This document shows, one piece after another, positions 1-15,188 of a stretch of 20,000 nucleotides of DNA. This stretch comes from an uncultured virus (IMG/VR IMGVR_UViG_3300033121_000366) (Duplodnaviria; Heunggongvirae; Uroviricota; Caudoviricetes): the IMG/VR virus record IMGVR_UViG_3300033121_000366; one strand, written 5' to 3'. The position numbers were made by a program, and so were the translations under genes. Position 1 is the stretch's first letter, and each line of letters begins with the position of its first letter. The notes under the pieces were generated by a model that did not search any database, was not told the DNA's origin, and saw only the letters and a program-made list of their open reading frames with translations.

Positions 1-855
1 CATAACTCTAAATAATTTTTTAATTTCTGCTGGTCTTGTCATATCTTTTTTATCAGCACCACTTAGAGTATCAGCTTTTTCTTTTGAAGTAGAAAGATTA
101 CCTAATGAATCTAAAACAACAAATATTTTTGGCATTTCTCCGCCACTTTTACGTTGAATATTTAATTGTTCTGCAATATTTCTCAATAAGTTTATAGCCA
201 TACTAATATCATCCACTGGTTGATAATCGACCAGTTCTGAATTAATACCAAAACGTTCCATCATATCAATATCAACTGCATTTTCAGTATCTATCCAAAT
301 GATATAATATCCCATTTTTTGGGCTTCTCTGGCAGAATTCAATGCTAAATATGTTTTACCTGTATTGTGTGATGATATACCCATATTATCAAAACCTGTA
401 CCTGCCCAATATCTATGATTTTCATGCTCAACTTCAAAATCATATACTATTTCTTTATCATTATTAGTTACAATATCAATAATTTTTTCTAATCCATTTT
501 TAGTAAGAATATTATCACCTATAGATAATTCATCTGCATGATACCAACCATTATCAGTTTCTATCAAATGATCATTTGAACATGAAAGTTTATTTTTATA
601 ATTTTCTGTAAAAATATTTTTAATAACTCTTTCATTTTTTATCCAAAAATCACCAATTGATTGGTAACCATCAGGTGTATCAATTATTATCTCATCTTCT
701 TTATGATTATAAATTAAATCTTTTATTGGTATTGTTTGTTTATTTTTTTCTATTATACCATAAAAATCATTTTTAATGCAATCTAAATCATGTATAACAT
801 AATGAGGATTATAATATAATATCTCATTCAACATCTCTTGTTCTGTAAAATTCAT
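1..855 (-). CDS. recA: RecA/UvsX recombinase C-terminal fragment preceded by the C-terminal half (IntC) of a split intein; runs off the window edge
   Basis: Not in the ORF track; translated by hand from ATG at 855 (alternative ATG at 834) and open to position 1. Sequence: MNFTEQEML...TIPIKDL...DTPDGYQ...LSCSNDHLIET...IVYDFEVEHENHRYWAG...ISSHN|TGKTYLALNSAREAQKMGYYIIWIDTENAVD...KIFVVLDSLGNL...DMTR. It has intein blocks B, F and G, then the RecA GKT, catalytic DTE and Walker B VVLDS motifs. Confidence 0.93.
   Translation of the reverse strand, partial: MNFTEQEMLNEILYYNPHYVIHDLDCIKNDFYGIIEKNKQTIPIKDLIYNHKEDEIIIDTPDGYQSIGDFWIKNERVIKNIFTENYKNKLSCSNDHLIETDNGWYHADELSIGDNILTKNGLEKIIDIVTNNDKEIVYDFEVEHENHRYWAGTGFDNMGISSHNTGKTYLALNSAREAQKMGYYIIWIDTENAVDIDMMERFGINSELVDYQPVDDISMAINLLRNIAEQLNIQRKSGGEMPKIFVVLDSLGNLSTSKEKADTLSGADKKDMTRPAEIKKLFRVM
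364..855 (-). mobile_element. Split intein C-fragment (long IntC, about 164 aa) of the RecA/UvsX intein
   Basis: Block B SNDH, block F VYDFEV...HRY, terminal His-Asn (367-369, 364-366), followed by Thr+1 (361-363). Confidence 0.9.
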
Positions 856-2092
856 TTTTTATTTCCTTTAATATAAAATTTAATTTATCAAATTTTTCAT
901 AATCATAAATAACATAATATTTATAATTATTGTTTAATGCACAATATTTTTTAAGAGTTTCTTTTTTTATTGTTTCGTAATAATTATCTTTAGAATATGG
1001 ATGTTTCCATACATTTTTTTCATCTTCTGTTAATAGAAGTGATGGATGTACATGCGAGCCATTATATTCTATAATAATTTTTAATTCTGGTATACAAAAA
1101 TCATAAAAATATATTTTATCATCTATATTTAAAAAAATTTCAGAATCTTTATATAAGTATATCAAATCTAAATTTAATTCTTTTATTATAATATCAAAAT
1201 ATTTAACTGATTCGTTTGAATAAAATCTTACATTATTATTTCTAAATTTTTTCAAAGCTATAGATGTTTTTTCTTCTATAGTTTTATTTTTCATTTTTTC
1301 AACCCATTTAGATTGTCTATCATAGAATTTTTTTGTACCTTCAATTTCACCATATTTAAGAATACATTTTTCTAAAGTAAATGTCGATTGTCTATCAATC
1401 AATAATTTATAAGCTTTTTCTATATCATTATCAGCATATTGCATCCAATATTCAAGAGTTGTATTATATTGAATTTTATAATTATGATTTATTTTATTAT
1501 TTTCTTTTCTTGATGCTGAACCTATAGATTGTCTTTTTTTAAGTTGTAATTTAGCTTCATCTATAGTATAAAATATACCAGTAATTGGATTTATTTTATC
1601 TAAAAAATAATCATATCTTAATGATGAACCTTTTTTTAAATTTATATTTTTTATTTCAACATCAGAATATTTAGAATTAAATGTATTATTCATTTTTGTA
1701 TGAATATCATCGTATAATTCTTTTCTTTTTATAATAGCATCATAATAACTCAAAGAGTATTTTTTTTGAATTTTTTCTATACTCAAAGTTTTTTGCAATT
1801 TACTAATCAATTCGGAACCTTCACTAATAGAATAACCTCTATTAATATAAAAATCTATAGATTTATTGGACATTATAGGTTCAAATCCTAATAATCTCAT
1901 ATCAAATCTAGATAATAAAGTTATTTCTTTAGATTTATATTTACCATATAAATCTAAATATTTAACATACTTATCATTTAAAAAATCTAAATTATTAGTA
2001 TTTAATATACTATACATCTTATTTAATTCCTTTACAAAGGAATCAAAAGTTAATGCATAATCATTATCAAAAAATATTTTCTTTCTATTCAT
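824..2092 (-). CDS. Free-standing putative homing endonuclease (Vsr-like/DUF559-type PD-(D/E)xK C-terminal domain) between the two recA halves
   Basis: C-terminal YSNES...FYDFCIPELKIIIEYNGSHVH motif; repeated TLE..(KYG) helical modules; lies between IntN and IntC in a different frame from both. Confidence 0.82.
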   Translation of the reverse strand: MNRKKIFFDNDYALTFDSFVKELNKMYSILNTNNLDFLNDKYVKYLDLYGKYKSKEITLLSRFDMRLLGFEPIMSNKSIDFYINRGYSISEGSELISKLQKTLSIEKIQKKYSLSYYDAIIKRKELYDDIHTKMNNTFNSKYSDVEIKNINLKKGSSLRYDYFLDKINPITGIFYTIDEAKLQLKKRQSIGSASRKENNKINHNYKIQYNTTLEYWMQYADNDIEKAYKLLIDRQSTFTLEKCILKYGEIEGTKKFYDRQSKWVEKMKNKTIEEKTSIALKKFRNNNVRFYSNESVKYFDIIIKELNLDLIYLYKDSEIFLNIDDKIYFYDFCIPELKIIIEYNGSHVHPSLLLTEDEKNVWKHPYSKDNYYETIKKETLKKYCALNNNYKYYVIYDYEKFDKLNFILKEIKNEFYRTRDVE

Positions 2093-2093
2093 A

Positions 2094-2127
2094 TTAACTT
2101 TTTTATTTTATATATTAAAAAAGTTAA
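2094..2127 (-). promoter_or_regulatory. Perfect 12-bp inverted repeat immediately upstream of the endonuclease ATG (probable translation-repressing hairpin)
   Basis: TTAACTTTTTTA (2094-2105) pairs with TAAAAAAGTTAA (2116-2127), 10-nt loop; the stem ends 1 nt from the ATG at 2092. Confidence 0.6.
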
Positions 2128-2136
2128 CCAGAATGT

Positions 2137-2436
2137 CTAGCTTTCAGTATTTATTTTTCTATCTCTTTTCAAAGTTTTCATTATATAACAATCAATTGTT
2201 TCACTACCAGGTAAACATCCACTTTGACCAGCAATCATAGTAACTCTACCTTCTGGTATACCTCTAAAAAGACTTCCAGTTACTTGTGCATTTAATAAAT
2301 AATTACCTAATGGAATCCACGCATTAATTTTACTAAATGGATTATTTTTTAGCACTGAACTTTCTGGATTGATTTTTGTCAAATGATTGCAAAATGTTGC
2401 AAAAGAAAATGGTGCACTTTCTGTTCTTTTAGCCAT
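2137..2436 (-). CDS. recA: RecA/UvsX recombinase N-terminal fragment (73 aa) fused to a very short split intein N-fragment (26 aa)
   Basis: WIPLGNYLLNAQVTGSLFRGIPEGRVTMIAGQSG is the UvsX/RecA segment leading into Walker A; it is followed by intein block A CLPGSETI and a TAG stop 26 codons later. Confidence 0.92.
   Translation of the reverse strand: MAKRTESAPFSFATFCNHLTKINPESSVLKNNPFSKINAWIPLGNYLLNAQVTGSLFRGIPEGRVTMIAGQSGCLPGSETIDCYIMKTLKRDRKINTES
2140..2217 (-). mobile_element. Split intein N-fragment (atypically short IntN, 26 aa)
   Basis: Cys1 (TGT at 2215-2217) begins CLPGSETIDCYIMKTLKRDRKINTES*. Joining the exteins restores G-Q-S-G-T-G-K-T. Confidence 0.87.
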
Positions 2437-2438
2437 AA

Positions 2439-2732
2439 TTATTTCTTTGTATATTGTTCGTTATTAAATGTGCCAATTTTTTTGGCAATGTTATTATATT
2501 TTTCAGTAAGAAACGTGTGTATCAAGCTCTCCATAGCTTCATCTTCTGTATTATAGAATAAACTATACTCATTCATTATAAACCAAAACCATGACTGTTC
2601 TAATGGATGAAAATTTAAATATCCTATAACACCTTTTCTTGATTCTTCTCGAACTATTATAAGTCCGTCATGTATTTTAGCTTTTTCAAATTTTAAGTTT
2701 GAAGTTGGTCCTGTAGTAATTATATTATTCAT
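2439..2732 (-). CDS. Hypothetical protein (97 aa)
   Basis: Tightly packed ORF in the minus-strand operon; no recognised motif. Confidence 0.7.
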   Translation of the reverse strand: MNNIITTGPTSNLKFEKAKIHDGLIIVREESRKGVIGYLNFHPLEQSWFWFIMNEYSLFYNTEDEAMESLIHTFLTEKYNNIAKKIGTFNNEQYTKK

Positions 2733-2929
2733 TTTTTATCATATGTAATAAAACTGTTAGCAATAGAAAAAATAAGGTTAATATTCCCCAAAATGCAAAT
2801 CCACCCCCAAAACGGTAATGTAACATACCACCAAGACCAATCAATAACATTACATAATTTTAAAATTACGAATGCTATACCTAACAAACCAAATATACTT
2901 ATACCAGATTGTGTTATATTTTTACTCAT
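2729..2929 (-). CDS. Small phage membrane protein (LKLxxVIDWSWWxV type), possibly frameshifted near its C-terminus
   Basis: Hydrophobic GLLGIAFVILKLCNVIDWSWWYVTLPFWG motif common in phage small membrane proteins. Confidence 0.75.
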   Translation of the reverse strand: MSKNITQSGISIFGLLGIAFVILKLCNVIDWSWWYVTLPFWGWICILGNINLIFSIANSFITYDKK

Positions 2930-2940
2930 ATATTTTTAAA

Positions 2941-3291
2941 TTAAATTCCTAAATCATCTCTTAAACGTCGTATTTCATCATCTGTATGTTTATTTGCTGC
3001 TATTAGATTAGCATCAATTTTCGCATCTAATTTTTTAATTTCTTTTTTAATATCTTCTATATCAGTTACTAAATTTTCAAATTTATCATCCACCGCAGTG
3101 AATTTAGTATTCATTTGACCATTCAAATCAGAAATTTTCGTATTTATATATGATATAATCCAATTTATAAAAATAATTATATCCTTTATTAAGGGGCCAA
3201 TATATGCACTTGGATATTTTTTATCGGCACCATCACCTTCGGTTATCGGTTTATATTTTGTTAAAAAATCATCGACATTGAAATTTTCCAT
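2941..3291 (-). CDS. Hypothetical coiled-coil protein (116 aa)
   Basis: Heptad-like C-terminal half (ISDLNGQM...IEDIKKEIKKLDAKI); operon packing. Confidence 0.7.
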   Translation of the reverse strand: MENFNVDDFLTKYKPITEGDGADKKYPSAYIGPLIKDIIIFINWIISYINTKISDLNGQMNTKFTAVDDKFENLVTDIEDIKKEIKKLDAKIDANLIAANKHTDDEIRRLRDDLGI

Positions 3292-3299
3292 AACACTTA

Positions 3300-4088
3300 T
3301 TATTTTTTATACATTGCATCATCTATATAATAATCTTCTACTGTTGGTATGTTTACTTGTACATAATCCGATATTTTTTGTTTAAATAAATCTATATTTT
3401 TATCAGTTTCATCTGTTTTGATTATAGATTTAATAATAAAATTACAAGTTGTAAATTTATTTTTAATTATTTCAATATCAGAAATAGATTCGAAACCTGT
3501 ATAATGATATAATATATTTACTTTTTTACCAGTATTCAATTTATATTTATTACAATAATTAACAATCTTTTGTAATCTTAAATATAAGATACCATGATTT
3601 TTAAACATATCATTTCTATCTTTATCATTCAAAGATGTTATATTGAAAAATAAATTAAAATCTTTATATTTTAAAGACATATTTAAAATTCTACTTAAAA
3701 TATCTGGATATTCTACTCCAACAGTATAAAGATTAAATGTAAAATTTAAATTTTTACAATACTCTACAAATCTTTCAACCTCTACCCAATTCATCATTGG
3801 TTCACCACTACATAAATTATCAATTTCTACTCTTGAATATTTTTCATTTGTATTTTTAACAGAATCCAAAACAGTATTTAATTGCTGTTTCATTTCATCT
3901 AATGTTAAATTTCTATAAAAGGAATTACCAAACTTACAATATTTACAACCTATAACACATCCTGATTGTACAGATATTGATATTTTTAATGTATCATTAA
4001 CAATATAAGCAAATGATGTATTATTTTGTTTTTTTTCTATATCTAAAATTACTGGTTTAATAATTTCATTATTTTTATTGAGATTCAT
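3300..4088 (-). CDS. Radical SAM protein of RlmN/Cfr-like ancestry, divergent (likely start ATG at 4088 rather than 4205)
   Basis: ISISVQSGCVIGCKYCKFG (CxxxCxxC with RlmN-like SxQxGC lead-in), RNLTLDEM..Q and GEPMMN. A start at 4088 avoids a long overlap with the upstream ORF. Confidence 0.78.
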   Translation of the reverse strand: MNLNKNNEIIKPVILDIEKKQNNTSFAYIVNDTLKISISVQSGCVIGCKYCKFGNSFYRNLTLDEMKQQLNTVLDSVKNTNEKYSRVEIDNLCSGEPMMNWVEVERFVEYCKNLNFTFNLYTVGVEYPDILSRILNMSLKYKDFNLFFNITSLNDKDRNDMFKNHGILYLRLQKIVNYCNKYKLNTGKKVNILYHYTGFESISDIEIIKNKFTTCNFIIKSIIKTDETDKNIDLFKQKISDYVQVNIPTVEDYYIDDAMYKK

Positions 4089-4350
4089 TTTGAATTTTTT
4101 TAATATTTTTAAGAATAGATGTTTTATCATTTCTGTATTCTCTTTTAAAGATTTCAAATTTATCATTTGAAATCTTATAGTCCTTTTTAAAGTCTTTAAA
4201 TTCAATAGACATATCTATAATAATTTTTAACATTTTTTGCTGTTGTTCATCATTATATGATATATAATTAGATAATATCTTTCTAGTTCTATATAAAGTA
4301 TAAAGAATATAAAATATTATAAATATTAATATTATATCTATGTATGTCAT
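4075..4350 (-). CDS. Hypothetical protein with an N-terminal membrane anchor
   Basis: IDIILIFIIFYILYTLY hydrophobic segment followed by a charged helical region. Confidence 0.7.
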   Translation of the reverse strand: MTYIDIILIFIIFYILYTLYRTRKILSNYISYNDEQQQKMLKIIIDMSIEFKDFKKDYKISNDKFEIFKREYRNDKTSILKNIKKIQNESQ

Positions 4351-4353
4351 ATT

Positions 4354-5328
4354 TTAAAATAAAGTTTTAACAGATACTAAATTGTATGGTATTTTTGGTT
4401 TACCTAATGCTTCCATAAATCTATTTATAGGATCTAAAATACAGTTAGAAAACATTAAATCATAATCGAAATTTGGAGCTATTTCTGCTGGAAAATTACC
4501 TTGTGCGTAGCCAAAAACTTCCCAAGATTTTGATTCATCTTTAACATAATAATATTTTATTTTGTTACCAGATTTTATCAAATTATACTTACTTTTATAT
4601 TTGGAATTATTTAATTTATAATTATGTATTGCGGCAGCTTTTACATGAATTGGACATTTTGATTCTAGTTCTAAACCATTTCTATCATTCAAAACATATT
4701 TTTCATAATCATTAACATTTCTAGATAAAGAAATGTTTTCAATATTTTGTAATTTAAAATCAGATTTCAATGCTTTTATTTTATTCATAAAAACAGTTGT
4801 ATCAAAATTCTTACCCTTTTCAATAATAAATTTTATTAAACTGAATAATGATTCCCTGGCAAATGTTGGATAAGAAGATTGAGAAGTTTCAATACCTTTG
4901 GTATATATTTTTTGCTGTGGTTTATAATAAATACCATTTTCACCACCATCTTTCCATGCCATATCCAACACATATTTTTTCTTAGAAGTCCATATACCAG
5001 CATATGATATAGATTCCATTTCAAACTCGTGCAAATTTTCTGTATTCCATTTTTTTGCATATTTCTCATGCATTTTAATAAAATAATCATTTAATCTGTG
5101 TTTATAAACTAAACGGATGAATTCTATAGGATCTATTTTACCATTTTTCCATTCAATGACAGAATCATATGCTTCTTCGAATGATACATAACTAGAATTA
5201 TGTACAAGTATATCATTAGCTATAAATGTATGTGTATCATCATTAATTTCTAAATCATATACATATTCATCTTCAAAATTACCTATACATTCACAACTCT
5301 CAACATCATCAAAATAATATTCAATCAT
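4354..5328 (-). CDS. polB: Family B DNA polymerase C-terminal fragment (palm/thumb) preceded by a 44-aa split intein IntC
   Basis: YVYDLEI...HTFIANDILVHN|SSYVSF (intein blocks F/G), then FEME, KKKYVL, TKGIETSQSS and PIHVKAA, which are T4 gp43-like C-terminal motifs. Confidence 0.93.
   Translation of the reverse strand: MIEYYFDDVESCECIGNFEDEYVYDLEINDDTHTFIANDILVHNSSYVSFEEAYDSVIEWKNGKIDPIEFIRLVYKHRLNDYFIKMHEKYAKKWNTENLHEFEMESISYAGIWTSKKKYVLDMAWKDGGENGIYYKPQQKIYTKGIETSQSSYPTFARESLFSLIKFIIEKGKNFDTTVFMNKIKALKSDFKLQNIENISLSRNVNDYEKYVLNDRNGLELESKCPIHVKAAAIHNYKLNNSKYKSKYNLIKSGNKIKYYYVKDESKSWEVFGYAQGNFPAEIAPNFDYDLMFSNCILDPINRFMEALGKPKIPYNLVSVKTLF
5197..5328 (-). mobile_element. Split intein C-fragment (IntC, 44 aa) of the PolB intein
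   Basis: Own ATG; ends in VHN with Asn at 5197-5199; Ser+1 at 5194-5196. Confidence 0.92.
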
Positions 5329-6464
5329 TTTATACCTAAAGTATTATTTATAAAATCTTTAATATTTAATTTAGGAACATCAGATTCCCAAATAATATAA
5401 GTTGTTATACCATATTCTTCTTTTAGAGCAGAATATCTAAAATTATCTTTTTCCCAAAGTTCACAAGCTTTAATATCTTTATTTAAAATCTTTAATAGAG
5501 GCATATCATTGGCTTCAAATATTTTAGGATTTCCATGAAATAAATCACCATTATATTCTATACATATATTCAAATCTGATATATAAAAATCTAAACTTAT
5601 AATCTTTTTTAAGGATTTTAATAGTATTCTTTTTTCTTTATTTTTTAAAGAATAATAAATATCTGTTATATTATATTTTTTTAATTCTGATTCTAATTTT
5701 TTAAAAAATATTTTTGATTGTTTTGAAACCGGCTGATATTTTCTATTTGAACAAGCTTCCAATTTTTTAGATAACATATTATAATATTTTTCTTCACCTA
5801 TTTCCTTACCATAAGTTTCTATGAAATATTCATATGTTATACCAGCAGTTCTTTGTTTTTCTATATAATCATTAAATATTTTTTCACCTTTAATATCACC
5901 ATGTCTTTTTTTACAATTATCTAATGTTATGGATCTTGATAAATTATATTCTTCAAATTGTTCTTTTGACCAACCATATTTATCTTTTTTATATTCGAAT
6001 GTGTTGGTTTCAGATTGTTTACTACAATAATTATTCCATACTTTTAAACCTTCATCATTACCATATTTTTTAATCATATTATCTAATGTCATGGCATAAC
6101 GGTCTCTTGAATTAAGAAAATCAACATCTGAAATATCAAATGCAAATTTTGTCATATCAGACATTATATTATATACCTTAGTTTTATTGATATTTTTATA
6201 ATTTTCAAAAGTATATTCCATACAAGATTGGCAAACTGTTAAATTATATTCTTTATCATTAATTATTTTACAAGTTTTATATGTTGTACCACCATATTTA
6301 AATTCCTTTGTTTTTTTATTATAACGTACAATAGTATTATCATAATATATTACATCATTGCACAATCTACATTGTGTAGCTGTATGATCAACATACATTT
6401 GTAAATTTTTAAATGTATTTTTATTTTTATCAATCCTGAACTGTTTTATTAATTCTAATAACAT
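5325..6464 (-). CDS. Free-standing putative homing endonuclease (Vsr-like/DUF559-type) between the two polB halves
   Basis: N-terminal CRLC...CQSC zinc-ligand pairs, repeated TLxxxxKKYG..G modules, C-terminal SKQS...LDFYISDLNICIEYNGDLFHG...WEKD..R...IIWESD. Its TGA overlaps the polB-C ATG (ATGA at 5325-5328). Confidence 0.85.
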   Translation of the reverse strand: MLLELIKQFRIDKNKNTFKNLQMYVDHTATQCRLCNDVIYYDNTIVRYNKKTKEFKYGGTTYKTCKIINDKEYNLTVCQSCMEYTFENYKNINKTKVYNIMSDMTKFAFDISDVDFLNSRDRYAMTLDNMIKKYGNDEGLKVWNNYCSKQSETNTFEYKKDKYGWSKEQFEEYNLSRSITLDNCKKRHGDIKGEKIFNDYIEKQRTAGITYEYFIETYGKEIGEEKYYNMLSKKLEACSNRKYQPVSKQSKIFFKKLESELKKYNITDIYYSLKNKEKRILLKSLKKIISLDFYISDLNICIEYNGDLFHGNPKIFEANDMPLLKILNKDIKACELWEKDNFRYSALKEEYGITTYIIWESDVPKLNIKDFINNTLGIK

Positions 6465-6500
6465 ATATAATCATTATTTTTTATTATAATGTTATATATG
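6462..6500 (-). promoter_or_regulatory. Hairpin that base-pairs the endonuclease start codon
   Basis: On the + strand CATATATAA (6462-6470) pairs with TTATATATG (6492-6500), and CATTAT (6472-6477) with ATAATG (6486-6491), with one bulge and an 8-nt loop. The ATG (6462-6464) is inside the stem. Confidence 0.6.
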
Positions 6501-6517
6501 CTGATACAGGATAAAAA

Positions 6518-7231
6518 TTATTTTAAAACTAAAATTTTGTCTGTTTTTAATATTTCACATGGTTTAACTTCTAGTTTTTCACCATCTCTAAATACTATCA
6601 TTGAATGATCATTTGTCATTATTATTTCTTTACCAGACTTTGTTTTTAATTTCCATTTAGATTTATTAACTTTGTGCCTTATAATTTTAGATACTTCAAC
6701 TTCTTTTATATCATTATTTTTAGTATAATTTAAAACTTTAAATGAAGTATTTTGTACAATTTCATGACCAAAAGAATCTATTATAAAACCTTCAAGTTTA
6801 GAAAATTCTTCCCATATAAACCAGACTGGTAATTTAATATCATTACTAATATTAATCAATGTATCAAAATTCACACTGTCGGTATCACCATATTTAACAG
6901 CATCACCTGTTAATTGATGTAACACTTTTATACCTAGTTTATCATGCAATTCTTTATCTAAGTGCCATTTTTCTTTAAAGTAATTATTAATGGAGTTAAT
7001 AGCATACATTAATAAATCTTGACCTTGTGTAGTTATAGCTTCTGCTACATCTGTATTATAACATTGAAAATATTGATTACCAATAGCACCATATGCAGAA
7101 TTAATAAAAATCTTTAATGCCATTTGTAAATTTTCATTATCATCTTTAATTTTTTTTAATCTTATTATTTCTTGTTTTATTTCATCTATCGATGAATTAT
7201 TGGGGTCTATATTACAATATTTTAATTTCAT
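6518..7231 (-). CDS. polB: Family B DNA polymerase middle fragment (fingers motif B to motif C) fused to a 119-aa split intein IntN
   Basis: QMALKIFINSAYGAIGNQYF (KxxxNSxYG), AEAITTQGQ and KYGDTD, then intein block A SVNFDTLI and block B IIMTNDHSMIV, ending in a stop. Confidence 0.93.
   Translation of the reverse strand: MKLKYCNIDPNNSSIDEIKQEIIRLKKIKDDNENLQMALKIFINSAYGAIGNQYFQCYNTDVAEAITTQGQDLLMYAINSINNYFKEKWHLDKELHDKLGIKVLHQLTGDAVKYGDTDSVNFDTLINISNDIKLPVWFIWEEFSKLEGFIIDSFGHEIVQNTSFKVLNYTKNNDIKEVEVSKIIRHKVNKSKWKLKTKSGKEIIMTNDHSMIVFRDGEKLEVKPCEILKTDKILVLK
6521..6877 (-). mobile_element. Split intein N-fragment (IntN, 119 aa, Ser1) of the PolB intein
   Basis: Ser1 (AGT at 6875-6877) directly after YGDTD; TxxH block B (TNDH). 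Splicing restores YGDTDSSYV. Confidence 0.9.
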
Positions 7232-11623: not shown

Positions 11624-13414
11624 TTATTTTATAGATAACCATTTTTTACGTAAATTGGCATTATTACCAAAAACAATTGTTAATATTTTATCAGAATATT
11701 CATCAGGAGACATTCGTTCTAATGTTAGATTTGTAAATATGTATTCCCAATCCTTTAGATCATTACTACCAAGACCTTTTAAATAACGAGCATTTGTTTT
11801 ATTTGTTTCTTTTGAAAAATCATCCAAAGAATAATAATATTTTCTTTTACCCTTCATTTCAATTGAAACTAATGGTGTAATTAATTTATAAAGTTTACCT
11901 TGTTTAATAATATTTGGAAACCATTTATTAAAAAAGTTAAGTATTAATGATGCTATATGGTTACCATCAACATCACCATCCGTTGCAATTATTATTCTTT
12001 TATATTTTACATCTGAACCTTTATCTTCTAAATTCAAATTTAAAATATTTATCAGGTCAATTATTTCAACATTGGATGATAAATCTGATATACTTTTTAC
12101 ATTTTTTAATTTACCACGCAATGTATAAACTGCATCAACATTTGGATCTCTTTTTTGTAAAATAGAACCTCTTGCAGAATTACCTTCTACTAAATATAAA
12201 TTTTCTTTCCTTTGACTTGGAAAATACTTATCTGATATTTTTTTTGAATTTTTTCTAGCCTTTTTTAATTTACTCATCTCCTCTTTTTTAAGAGTATTTT
12301 CAATATCATTATTGACTATATTATACCATTCAGATTCTTTTATTTGTTTAATTTCTTTATCAGGTATGTCAAATTGTAAAACGCCATTTAATTCATTTCT
12401 TGTAGAAGAAAATTTCGTTTTATTTTGGTCTGCAAATTTGACATTTTTAGGAGGTAGGTTTAAAACCATCAAAGTTTCATATAAATAATGCGCTTTATCA
12501 TAATCAAAAACTTTATCATTTATAATTTCTTGCATCATTTTTTGATGTATACCTGTACACATAGAACCATTAACAAATGATACGCTTGTAGAATTCTCTG
12601 TGGTCTGCCAAGTATATACCTTTAACGAATTACTATTTTTAATTAATAATCGTTCTTTAGGCATGAAAGGAACGTCTAGATTTACTAATACATCATCAAT
12701 ATAGAATTTAAAATCTAAATTAGAAATAAACTCATCATCTTTTTTGAGCATATTTCTAAATATCATATTAGTGGTTAATAATTCTAAATCCCATAAACTA
12801 TCAAAAATATCAAATCTAGGTATAAATATAACTTTTGTACCAGGTTTAAAAGTACCATATTCGGTTTCCGATTCTATAGTTTCAAATTTAGCCCAAGTAT
12901 GTTTATACTTGTATTTACCGTCACCAGTTTCAACAGAAAATAATTCTGATAAAACATTAACAACCGAAGAGCCTACACCATTTGTACCAATTAAATTCGA
13001 TTCTTCATTATCATTATTAAAATTAGAACCAGCTCTTAATTGTGAAAATGCAGTTACTATATTATTAAGTCCTGTTTTTTCATTGATATCTAAACCTTTA
13101 TAAAATCCTCGTCCATTATCTTCAACTGAAACAAGATTGTGGGATGTATCTATTCTTACTTCAATTTTACCTTTATAAGTTGGCTTTAATTGATAAAGAT
13201 GTTTTAATTCATCAAAAGAATTATCAACTATTTCACCAAATAATTTATGCATACCTATAGAAAAAACTTTATTTTTTAAAATAAGTTCATTATTTTCTAT
13301 AATTGGTATTTTTTCTTCAGTTTGATCAATTGATCCAACATACATCGAGGGTCTTAACAAGATGTGACTTTTATCATCTAGGGCTACAATTTCCCTTTTA
13401 TTTTTAGATGCCAT
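11624..13414 (-). CDS. Type IIA DNA topoisomerase, ATPase/TOPRIM subunit (GyrB/ParE; T4 gp39+gp60-like in one ORF)
   Basis: HILLRPSMYVGS, EIVDNSFDE, DNGRG, GTNGVGSS (GHKL motifs); LVEGNSA, LRGK, TDGDVDG, RYLKGLGS (TOPRIM motifs). Confidence 0.95.
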   Translation of the reverse strand: MASKNKREIVALDDKSHILLRPSMYVGSIDQTEEKIPIIENNELILKNKVFSIGMHKLFGEIVDNSFDELKHLYQLKPTYKGKIEVRIDTSHNLVSVEDNGRGFYKGLDINEKTGLNNIVTAFSQLRAGSNFNNDNEESNLIGTNGVGSSVVNVLSELFSVETGDGKYKYKHTWAKFETIESETEYGTFKPGTKVIFIPRFDIFDSLWDLELLTTNMIFRNMLKKDDEFISNLDFKFYIDDVLVNLDVPFMPKERLLIKNSNSLKVYTWQTTENSTSVSFVNGSMCTGIHQKMMQEIINDKVFDYDKAHYLYETLMVLNLPPKNVKFADQNKTKFSSTRNELNGVLQFDIPDKEIKQIKESEWYNIVNNDIENTLKKEEMSKLKKARKNSKKISDKYFPSQRKENLYLVEGNSARGSILQKRDPNVDAVYTLRGKLKNVKSISDLSSNVEIIDLINILNLNLEDKGSDVKYKRIIIATDGDVDGNHIASLILNFFNKWFPNIIKQGKLYKLITPLVSIEMKGKRKYYYSLDDFSKETNKTNARYLKGLGSNDLKDWEYIFTNLTLERMSPDEYSDKILTIVFGNNANLRKKWLSIK

Positions 13415-13506
13415 TTTATTTACAGAAATACATTGTTGTTCTAAAAAAGAATATTAATTATTTAATATATAAATTATACAATATAACTAAAAAAAAGTTT
13501 AATATC

Positions 13507-14580
13507 ATGAATAAAAAAGAATTAGTAGAATTTATTGATAATATCTTAAAAACTAAGAGTAGATCATCATTAATGGGAATTATTAGGAATAATATAGATA
13601 TAAGAGAATTAATTCTAAAATATACAATTGAATTGGATAATTCTACAATGTCACAAAGATGTTGGCACATTTATTATGGTATAAAGGATAAACCTCTGTG
13701 TAAGCAATGTAATTTAAATATACCAACTTTCCAGAAAAATAATTGGAATTATTCCGATTGTTGTTCTTTAACATGTTCTGGATTATATACTCTTGAAAAA
13801 AAGAAACAAAAAAATTTACAACTGTATGGTGTTGATAATTATTCAAAAACGGACGAATGTAAAGAAAAGAGAAAACAAACATGTTTAAAAAAATATGGAG
13901 TAGAACATTCATTTCAATCTAACAACAATAAAGAGAAAACAAAACAAACATATTTAGAAAAATATGGAGTTGATCATTTTTCAAAAACAGATGAATTTAA
14001 AGAAAAACATAAACAAACATGTTTAGAAAAATATGGAGTTGATCATCAATCTAAAGCTAATGAAGTTAAAAATAAAATTAAACAAACATGTTTAGAAAGA
14101 TATGGAGTTAATAGTGGATTTGATATAAATAGAATTCAAAATTTACAATATAGAATAAAAACATGGATTAAAAAATATGGTGTTGAAAATCCCATGCAAA
14201 ATTGTGAAATATCGGATAAAAGTTTTCATAATGGATTTAAATATAAATCATATACTTTACCATCTGGTAAAGAAGTTAAAATTCAAGGTTATGAAGATAA
14301 ATTTTTATATGAATATTTTTCAAATGGTTATTCGGAATCTAATATTTTAATTGAAAATAAAGATATAGAGAAATATTTAGGTAAAATCTGGTATAATACC
14401 AAAGATGGTAAGAAACACAGATATTATCCAGATGCTTTTTTAATAGAAGAAAATAAGATTATAGAAGTAAAATCAATATGGACTATAAAAATAAATCCCG
14501 AGGTACAAGAATTAAAAAAACAAGCTTGTTTAGATAACGGCTTAAATTTTGAATATAAAATATACAAATATGAAGATTAA
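13507..14580 (+). CDS. Free-standing putative homing endonuclease with zinc-finger, 23-aa KYGV repeats and a C-terminal PD-(D/E)xK domain (likely start ATG at 13507; the ORF extends back to 13408)
   Basis: CKQC...CCSLTC; tandem KQTCLEKYGVDH repeats; QGYE...RYYPDAFLIEENKIIEVKS. The only convincing plus-strand gene; its stop overlaps the clpP stop (TTAA at 14577-14580). Confidence 0.82.
   Translation: MNKKELVEFIDNILKTKSRSSLMGIIRNNIDIRELILKYTIELDNSTMSQRCWHIYYGIKDKPLCKQCNLNIPTFQKNNWNYSDCCSLTCSGLYTLEKKKQKNLQLYGVDNYSKTDECKEKRKQTCLKKYGVEHSFQSNNNKEKTKQTYLEKYGVDHFSKTDEFKEKHKQTCLEKYGVDHQSKANEVKNKIKQTCLERYGVNSGFDINRIQNLQYRIKTWIKKYGVENPMQNCEISDKSFHNGFKYKSYTLPSGKEVKIQGYEDKFLYEYFSNGYSESNILIENKDIEKYLGKIWYNTKDGKKHRYYPDAFLIEENKIIEVKSIWTIKINPEVQELKKQACLDNGLNFEYKIYKYED
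13804..14220 (+). repeat. Coding tandem repeats with a 69-bp (23-aa) period inside the plus-strand endonuclease
   Basis: KQKNLQLYGVDN / KQTCLKKYGVEH / KQTYLEKYGVDH / KQTCLEKYGVDH / KQTCLERYGVNS, plus a more distant IKTWIKKYGVEN. Confidence 0.85.
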
Positions 14581-15188
14581 ACATTCAAAGAAAAACTATA
14601 ATCAATTTTATAAGTTAAATTTGGAACTGCTATATGGTTGATAAGATTAAATTCTAAAGCCCTTTCTGGTGTTAACCAAAAATCAACATTTTTTAATTTT
14701 TTAATCTTTTCTTTAAAGTATCCAGATTTTTGCCCACAGTTTTCATCTAATATTTTATATAATTGTGCATTAACTCTGTTTACTTCTTTCATAGAAGCCC
14801 CCATTTCATCTGCTTTTCCCATCAAAACACTAGATACATCATGTATCATTACAGATGAATTTGGCGTTATATATCTATAACCTTCGTGACCACATGATAA
14901 TAATATAGCCCCTGCGGAATATGCTTTACCACTACATATAGTCATTACTATTTTTTTAGATTCTTTTATGCAATCAATCATTGCAAATAATGAATAAATA
15001 TCACCACCATATGAATCTATTATAATAGGTATTATATTTTGTCCAGTATTCTCTGCCTCTTCAAACCTATCAAAAAAATCTTTACTTTTATCTTCTTCTA
15101 TATCATTCACTCTAATAGTAATAGGTTTTACTATAGATATATCATTTTCATTAATACTTAAATTATTACCTTCATATTTTATTAACAT
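14577..15188 (-). CDS. clpP: ClpP-family serine protease subunit
   Basis: IIDSYGGDI, GKAYSAGAILLSCG (catalytic Ser), VMIHD (His), DFWLTPERALEFNLI (Asp). Confidence 0.92.
   Translation of the reverse strand: MLIKYEGNNLSINENDISIVKPITIRVNDIEEDKSKDFFDRFEEAENTGQNIIPIIIDSYGGDIYSLFAMIDCIKESKKIVMTICSGKAYSAGAILLSCGHEGYRYITPNSSVMIHDVSSVLMGKADEMGASMKEVNRVNAQLYKILDENCGQKSGYFKEKIKKLKNVDFWLTPERALEFNLINHIAVPNLTYKIDYSFSLNV

Follow-up and report, generated by a model that had tools for sequence, protein, structure and literature searches.

Layout of the fractured uvsX locus

The DNA analysed here, called the window throughout, is a 20,000-nucleotide (nt) stretch of an uncultured virus of the Caudoviricetes (IMG/VR record IMGVR_UViG_3300033121_000366), and the subject of this account is the gene at its start for a UvsX-like recombinase, uvsX, which is broken inside its Walker A loop by what is, judged by homology, a split intein. 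Three tightly packed open reading frames (ORFs) lie on the minus strand and correspond to a UvsX N fragment, a nuclease and a UvsX C fragment. The parts of the locus are as follows.

2436..2137, minus: ORF of the uvsX N fragment, 99 amino acids (aa), made up of 73 aa of UvsX and the 26-aa intein N part
2218..2436, minus: uvsX N-extein, 73 aa, ending ...MIAGQSG, the first half of the Walker A loop (from the ORF and the phrog_97 match)
2140..2217, minus: intein N part, 26 aa, with Cys1, a beta1-beta2 hairpin (CLPGSETIDCYIM) and a basic 13-aa tail (from the sequence)
2137..2139, minus: TAG stop closing the N fragment (codon read; contigs of runs X5, X9 and X10 carry no listed difference there)
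824..2092, minus: predicted free-standing homing endonuclease gene, 422 aa, in another frame (phrog_22677 and predicted fold)
864..868, minus: AAGGA, a putative Shine-Dalgarno-like signal 8 nt 5' of the C fragment ATG (read from the sequence)
364..855, minus: intein C part, 164 aa, ending ...GISSHN (from VidaL homology, conserved residues and predicted fold)
1..363, minus, continuing outside the window: uvsX C-extein, 321 aa in all, Thr+1 followed by GKTYLA... (phrog_97 match and ORF)

The N fragment ends ...MIAGQSG followed directly by CLPGSETIDCYIMKTLKRDRKINTES and then TAG, with CLPGSETID as the first residues of the intein N part. The nuclease ORF starts 44 bases after the N fragment ORF, and its last 32 bases overlap the ORF of the C fragment, which has a full length of 485 aa (3446-4903 in L001, the identical IMG/VR record also numbered G001). 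Both uvsX pieces stand in one reading frame, but many stops interrupt this frame over the 1284 bases that separate them, and uvsX is thus not continuous.

The two pieces complement each other closely when compared with phrog_97, the family of UvsX-like recombinases. Residues 10-74 of the N piece match profile positions 18-84 (E 1.8e-7), and residues 164-285 of the C piece match positions 83-205 (E 3.8e-19); because these matches adjoin, the exteins abut exactly, with no host protein lost or duplicated. The Pfam RecA model also matches the C-extein, weakly. Joining the extein ends places GQSG before TGKT and yields the Walker A motif, and the predicted joined product is a 394-aa UvsX. The claim of the initial annotation that uvsX is fractured within Walker A by an intein is thus borne out by the ORFs, the phrog_97 matches and the rebuilt motif. 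A search for a second uvsX in the 80.5-kb record, estimated by CheckV to be 42% complete, found none.

The stops that separate the pieces were examined in independent assemblies, with the stretch 600-2500 present in runs of seven studies and contigs compared from four runs. One of these, X1, had a word share of 1.00, but its pieces were just 19-30 letters long and it was not used. In X5 a single 4362-nt contig spans 600-2500, and in X9 and X10 the stretch is covered by tiled contigs; across these three independent studies there are zero inserted or deleted letters. The list of differences holds just two letters. One, 2320 C>T in X5 and X10, falls on the third base of Ala39 and is synonymous by codon reading; the other, 2448 T>A in one 61-nt X9 contig, lies outside the three ORFs. 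The IMG/VR record G001 is 100% identical to window positions 1-2800, a different, second IMG/VR record holds a 100% identical C part, and a 99%-identical protein variant (P0001) has the same start Met as the C fragment. The agreement of the contigs, the identical second record and the shared start together indicate that the stops are not an assembly error. The TAG at 2137-2139, for which a check at the level of reads had been proposed, is covered in the contigs of X5, X9 and X10 without a listed difference, and the contigs of all three studies keep the stops that a single contiguous frame would lack. Six contig joints (e.g. 636->2101) were set aside, five with 22 letters or fewer on the shorter side and the sixth running backwards; such joints are mostly repeats or come from other organisms. 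Scans of 600-2800 for control signals were uninformative, with 23 promoter-like sites where 24.1 would be expected and a single terminator-like site, on the opposite strand.

Split site, predicted docking and predicted nuclease of the intein

A phmmer search of the PDB with the C part returned the VidaL intein (6vgv/6vgw) at E 1.5e-18, with query residues 32-151 aligned to chain residues 18-135, and the ORF from 855 was therefore rightly read at the outset as the rest of an intein followed by TGKTYLA. An AlphaFold2 (AF2) model of the C part, built from 38 sequences, has a predicted local distance difference test (pLDDT) score of 87.5. Searching this model with Foldseek again placed VidaL first (E 1.2e-8, target TM 0.73, root-mean-square deviation (rmsd) 1.7 over 127 columns, 35% identity). 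There were 38 PDB matches at E<=0.001 and, among the matches listed, all are inteins or related Hint-type domains, with the Mtu RecA, Npu DnaB and gp41-1 inteins among the lower ones. The AF2 model and the Foldseek matches thus give the C part the horseshoe-shaped Hint fold of a class-1 intein.

The residues needed for class-1 splicing are complete: Cys1, S93..H96 (block B), D139 (block F), H163-N164 (block G) and Thr+1. In the C part, these blocks follow a two-helix N-terminal extension (about residues 1-38) and helix alpha1 (44-50). An alignment of 34 sequences (A3) shows H96, D139, H163 and N164 to be invariant and S93 nearly so. Cys1 corresponds to Cys74 of the N fragment, stands directly after ...GQSG and is invariant in seven N fragments, as are L75, Y84, R93 and E98. 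The N parts of these seven are 24-29 aa long, and relatives of the N fragment that are 36-71% identical still keep an N part of this length with a conserved tail.

The N part consists of the first beta hairpin, CL...Y.[IM], and the 13-residue tail, with alpha1 (IPIKDLI, 44-50) sitting in the C part, which places the break in the loop after beta2. This split position has been named S1, and VidaL and PolB16 were assigned to it (PMC13014065, 2026). By its homology and conserved residues, the intein is a class-1 homologue of VidaL split into 26 and 164 aa; the lengths, Cys1 and Thr+1 given in the initial annotation are exact to the base in the ORF translations. It shares with VidaL (PDB 6VGV/6VGW) the Cys1, the break after beta2 and before alpha1, and the short N part. 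However, the VidaL N part is 16 aa (PMC13014065), whereas the 26-aa N part here has about 10 extra residues at its end in the form of a conserved basic tail. The C part is likewise about 31 residues longer at its start, and in the model these extra residues, which VidaL lacks, make up most of a two-helix hairpin.

The two added segments are conserved and are predicted to meet. The C-part extension is modeled by AF2 as two helices (5-15 and 24-38) in a block with pLDDT 87-95, at least 90% of the 34 sequences retain its residues E11 and F31, and R93 and E98 of the N-part tail are invariant in the seven N fragments down to 36% identity. When the N fragment was modeled together with the C part, the predicted complex reached an ipSAE of 0.87 with the best control at 0.00. 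Among solved complexes 116 of 157 attain this mark, and among mismatched pairs 2 of 215; own alignments being used, these counts hold only roughly. At least 80% of contacts agree between runs and the partner pLDDT is at least 66. The predicted interface brings N-fragment residues 71-98 against C-part residues 3, 7, 10-11 and 13-15 as well as the Hint core, and the pair of E11 and residue 88 is among the most confident. Counted by eye in the window copy alone, the tail carries a net charge of about +3 and the first 31 C-part residues about -5.

Three contiguous relatives (P0042, P0057 and P0077) carry the extra segment in frame between beta2 and alpha1, implying that the nuclease gene landed in or beside an insertion that already existed. 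The first 40 or so residues of the C part had been described as extra and possibly dispensable. The former holds for about 31 residues in comparison with VidaL; the latter finds no support in the conserved E11 and F31, the contiguous relatives or the predicted contact with the tail, and the models suggest that the extension is a docking element that is probably not dispensable.

A further role for the insertion may be considered from scattered matches to helix-turn-helix (HTH) families. The insertion at the C-part start of one relative (L057:3152-3400) matches the Pfam family HTH_3 (E 1.4e-4; 22.3 bits, below the cut-off of 23) and, weakly, eight further HTH families; residues 7-39 of P0010 match HTH_Tnp_ISL3 (0.0087) and HTH_28 (0.017), and L032:3267-3509 has a weak Xre-like match. 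No HTH match was obtained for the L034 insertion or for the 42 residues of the window copy. It is conceivable, though doubtful, that the long-form subfamily, with N parts of 22-33 aa and C parts of about 160-180 aa, has gained a docking or DNA-binding module with no counterpart in VidaL. As a similarly tentative suggestion, this module would be composed of the basic N-part tail and the acidic two-helix C-part start, whose own interface would serve as a second electrostatic handle for fragment capture. The insertion may have originated as a DNA-binding element that cooperates with the free-standing nuclease or regulates the cassette. If true, the subfamily could be a source of split inteins that are orthogonal to VidaL and whose N part is still synthesisable.

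The ORF between the halves, in another frame at 2092..824, had been taken for an endonuclease, and its predicted Vsr-like fold agrees with this. The protein has a helical N-terminal region and a Vsr-like domain at about residues 288-420, and its family (phrog_22677) comprises 1651 representative clusters at E<=0.001. It carries no Pfam name, DUF559 being detected in just 2 of 43 members. In the model (pLDDT 90.4), residues 285-416 superpose on Vsr (1cw0) with Z 10.1 and rmsd 4.2 over 115 aligned residues. The catalytic domain of I-Bth0305I (3r3p) is matched with Z 9.8 and rmsd 2.4 over 94 of its 97 residues. It is the superposition that points to a Vsr-type fold; Foldseek E-values alone are weak (0.013-0.14). 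Eight columns are invariant among 43 homologues, including E318, D331, E342, G345 and H349, as compared with I-Bth0305I by region. The nuclease is accordingly predicted, from its modeled fold, to be a Vsr-like (EDxHD-type) homing endonuclease.

A related nuclease also occurs in the DNA polymerase locus of the same window (379 aa, 6464..5325; phrog_22677, E 1.2e-48).

Spread of the family and comparison with known systems

Out of 222 candidate proteins found with the C-part region, 90 reached E<=0.001. The junction HN/[ST]GK (the slash marking the splice point) lies 115-212 residues from the start of the protein in 81 of them, with no block A upstream, identifying these as C fragments; five are contiguous with a block A, and the pattern did not place the others. 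The residue at +1 is Thr in 79 and Ser in seven, with four outside the pattern used. By Pfam the hosts are RecA/UvsX, PhoH and AAA proteins and one DnaB-type helicase (P0090), and in P0046, P0049, P0063, P0070, P0072, P0076, P0078, P0079 and P0083-P0090 the intein sits in the P-loops of phage ATPases other than UvsX. These ATPases are PhoH-like proteins (PF02562), clamp-loader-like AAA proteins (PF00004), whose C parts measure only about 116 aa, and the one helicase of the DnaB kind. Sites of the form G..G/[TS]GK[ST] seem to be the general target of the family.

Fifty IMG/VR loci encode a relative, and 38 of them are split, defined by an upstream ORF that stops 15-33 aa after Cys1. These 38 hold 23 distinct N-part strings, many of the loci being near-duplicates. 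Four loci are contiguous and eight could not be assigned, mostly at contig ends. A nuclease of this family lies between the halves in 22 of the split loci and is absent from the other 16; in L020 and L022 its gene is in pieces. In L011-L014 (e.g. L011:3054-5024), which lack the nuclease, both halves stand in one frame with only a stop, a single codon and an ATG between them; in L018:3030-4766, likewise nuclease-less and in one frame, two stops and five codons intervene. These arrangements look like precise loss of the nuclease gene or a coupled restart.

Relatives of the N-extein were also collected from metagenome contigs, where 272 were confirmed and the best 80 classified. An intein is lacking in 57 of these 80, of which 41 were recognised by pattern and 16 by eye. 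A further 17 are split and have N parts of 22-29 aa, five hold a contiguous intein of 174-184 aa, and one is incomplete. At the insertion place, many intein-less genes have the sequence G..GTGK[TS], so that Thr+1 is the native P-loop residue of the host. Together with its presence in 79 of the 90 family members, this removes the impression given initially that Thr+1 is unusual. A scan with the C-extein for an intein-less allele of the same phage gave only this phage among viral contigs and nothing among metagenome contigs; the nearest empty sites, L064 and L080, have N-extein identities of 58-66%.

Thirteen GenBank records hold a relative. The same layout is present in a cultured jumbo phage, Pseudomonas phage PA5oct (L061, NC_071039.1 134722-137728), whose uvsX consists of an 81-aa N fragment ending 17 aa after Cys1, a 477-aa ORF with a Vsr-like motif and a 423-aa C fragment. 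Unlike the window copy, PA5oct has the short VidaL-like form without the two-helix extension, and Ser at +1. Its genes are annotated as 'hypothetical protein' twice and as 'UvsX-like recombinase', with no intein or nuclease named, and the record of the C fragment carries an ESI-MS/MS (electrospray ionisation tandem mass spectrometry) note. Matches to the C part also occur in ten further Pseudomonas phage records and in Salicola phage SCTP-2. The VidaL inteins themselves were reportedly first named, in the work of Neugebauer et al. in 2017 and Burton et al. in 2020, after UvsX-like and helicase-like host genes.

The arrangement belongs to a set of fractured genes already described. Dassa 2009 presents phage replication and repair genes that are broken at split-intein halves with a free-standing Vsr-like nuclease gene between them (PMC2677866). 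The uvsX locus corresponds to this set in having two co-oriented host ORFs, split-intein halves at the break and a free-standing endonuclease gene in between. It differs in the host gene, as the available part of that paper mentions uvsX as a neighbouring gene and does not name it as a fractured host (PMC2677866). No description of an intein in uvsX was found in the literature searched, in which the supplements of Dassa 2009 were not covered. The position of the break also differs from canonical splits, which fall where the endonuclease is inserted and leave about 100-120 aa in the N part and 35-50 aa in the C part (PMC13014065), whereas the break here is near the N end of the intein.

Other natural splits with short N parts (15-37 aa) are AceL TerL, GOS TerL and PolB16 OarG (PMC13014065, PMC10189870). 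AceL TerL and GOS TerL are split after alpha1 (S2), unlike the S1 break here, and reside in other host genes. PolB16 OarG resembles the present intein in its similarly long C part of 168 aa, but it is cysteine-less (Ser1/Ser+1), its extra length comes from an insertion at T84-D101 and not from the N end of the C part, and its host gene is again a different one. As for the nuclease, the C-terminal domain of the present model superposes on I-Bth0305I (3R3P), with invariant acidic and His residues in the same region. I-Bth0305I has its gene inside a group I intron of recA (PMC3239194), whereas the nuclease here is free-standing within an intein gene, and there is no match between the two at the level of sequence.

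Taken by homology across these searches, S1-split P-loop inteins are a large family, common in metagenomes and not rare. The initial annotation had presented the split as a rare and perhaps new type; this does not stand, as the intein is a VidaL homologue in a large metagenomic family with the same split place. The locus is a real example of an already known kind, with no new principle and low conceptual surprise. What the family does offer is a view of all the gene-breaking stages of Dassa within a single host gene family, from the empty site and the contiguous intein, through the split intein with its nuclease gene and the decay of that gene, to the split intein that lacks it.

Proposed mechanism, alternatives and neighbouring elements

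It is very probable that this is a fractured uvsX of an AT-rich T4-like phage, in which a class-1 intein in the P-loop was split by the insertion of a nuclease gene and the resulting proteins splice in trans. From what is observed or predicted (the ORF layout, homology, folds, docking and family spread), we infer splicing, nuclease activity and homing as follows. A free-standing Vsr-like homing endonuclease gene would have inserted into the coding sequence of the intein, in the loop after beta2, leaving the intein naturally split into its 26-aa N part and 164-aa C part, and the locus would yield three proteins. The beta hairpin of the N part would slot into the Hint fold of the C part, with the basic tail docking on the acidic two-helix extension. 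Cys1 would then form a thioester, Thr+1 would attack this thioester, and Asn164 would cyclise with His163 assisting; the O-to-N shift would give a normal peptide bond, restoring GQSG-TGKT and a 394-aa UvsX. The nuclease presumably cuts uvsX alleles without the nuclease in co-infecting phages, and recombinational repair would copy the cassette in. That an active recombinase requires joining at the protein level, as was argued initially, is consistent with the break in the P-loop and the conserved splicing residues.

Several points weigh against this interpretation. The locus is known from DNA alone, and splicing is proposed by analogy with the family. The Pfam intein models stay below their cut-offs on the C part, with PT-HINT at 21.2 against 27.7 bits and Intein_splicing at 16.6 against 35.8. 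A five-residue insertion, GFDNM (C-part residues 154-158, window 376-390), lies directly before block G. Among the 34 A3 sequences it occurs only here and in the 99%-identical P0001, is modeled with a confidence of 60-66, and could impair activity. For the nuclease, a phmmer search against the PDB gave nothing usable, a profile of 43 sequences had no match there at E<=10, and Foldseek of the model had no match at E<=0.001. With the record 42% complete, another recombinase gene could lie elsewhere in the genome. Finally, the docking score may in part reflect memory of a like complex, as VidaL has been solved; since VidaL lacks the extension, the predicted contacts to the extension would not stem from it, while remaining those of a model. 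The model of the two intein parts that had been called for thus supports their association with this reservation.

The first alternative is that the two uvsX pieces form a non-covalent two-subunit recombinase without splicing. There is precedent in fractured genes lacking inteins that work, or are presumed to work, as two pieces, namely an SbcD-like gene, Aeh1 NrdA and phage 25 gp43 (PMC2677866). Here, however, the break falls within the P-loop and both pieces would carry bulky intein parts at the active site, and the splicing residues are all conserved across relatives that are 36-71% identical, which would not be expected if splicing were unused. A two-subunit enzyme is therefore quite unlikely.

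Alternatively, uvsX could have been inactivated by the nuclease insertion and be decaying as a pseudogene that is no longer used. The private GFDNM insertion with its low model confidence could be taken as a sign of such decay, as could the nuclease genes in pieces in L020 and L022. Against this, all three ORFs are intact and the same in three assemblies, where the listed differences are synonymous or outside the ORFs, and the N-part tail and C-part extension are conserved in diverged relatives. The split forms also outlast loss of the nuclease gene in 16 of 38 loci, and persistence of the split state after this loss argues for a stable working state. Decay is very unlikely on these grounds.

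Joining at the RNA level, by a group I intron carrying the nuclease ORF, or translational bypass would also reconnect the two pieces. An Rfam scan of window 1-3000 on both strands at E<=10 found no intron family, its three matches (snoZ101, ctRNA_p42d and ZNRD1-AS1_1) being at chance level, and a group I intron was rejected as no ribozyme core was found in this region. Moreover, intein blocks flank the break, and the C fragment has its own ATG and the AAGGA. In the nuclease-less L011 and L018 the halves are separated by stops and a fresh ATG, and the in-frame gap in the window is full of stops. No RNA runs are on record among those covering 600-2500; X5 is labelled RNA-Seq cDNA and was judged to be probably DNA, and its contig spans the three ORFs unjoined. 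This type of joining is most unlikely. An assembly or sequencing artefact is barely credible, given that contigs from three studies agree without indels, two IMG/VR records share an identical C part, and the same layout recurs in many diverged loci and in the cultured PA5oct.

If the trans-splicing proposed for this locus takes place, its practical interest is moderate. Split inteins with a short, synthesisable N part are useful for protein semisynthesis, and few natural ones have been named (PMC13014065). The locus adds a VidaL relative of 26 and 164 aa with Thr+1 and a conserved, predicted extra docking element, and the family to which it belongs is aimed at the P-loops of phage ATPases, comprising UvsX, PhoH, clamp-loader-like AAA proteins and one DnaB-type helicase.

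Several further elements were noted. A family-B DNA polymerase at window 4354-7231, minus strand, is a second fractured gene, with the following fragments.

7231..6518, minus: polymerase N fragment, in which ...YGDTD is followed by about 115 aa of intein N part
5328..4354, minus: polymerase C fragment, with a C part of about 44 aa ending ...ILVHN, followed by SSYVSF

This polymerase intein is split at the canonical site, unlike the S1 split of uvsX, and the 379-aa nuclease at 6464..5325 lies between its two fragments. In the related phages L008 and L009 the polymerase is split likewise, but the nuclease gene is absent. A third fractured gene, belonging to the canonical gp41 type, is probable in L009:5740-7089, where a DnaB/gp41-like helicase ORF enters the start of an intein (...ATQTNR followed by CLSLDTKV...) and then stops. 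The minus strand of the window at 3300-4205 holds a gene for a 301-aa radical SAM protein (Pfam PF04055, E 1.1e-8), situated between those of the polymerase and UvsX. Further along, a 390-aa ORF at 13408-14580 on the plus strand matches homing-endonuclease PHROGs (phrog_3339, E 3.4e-20) and is wedged between the genes for the topoisomerase II large subunit (13414..11624) and the prohead protease (15188..14577).

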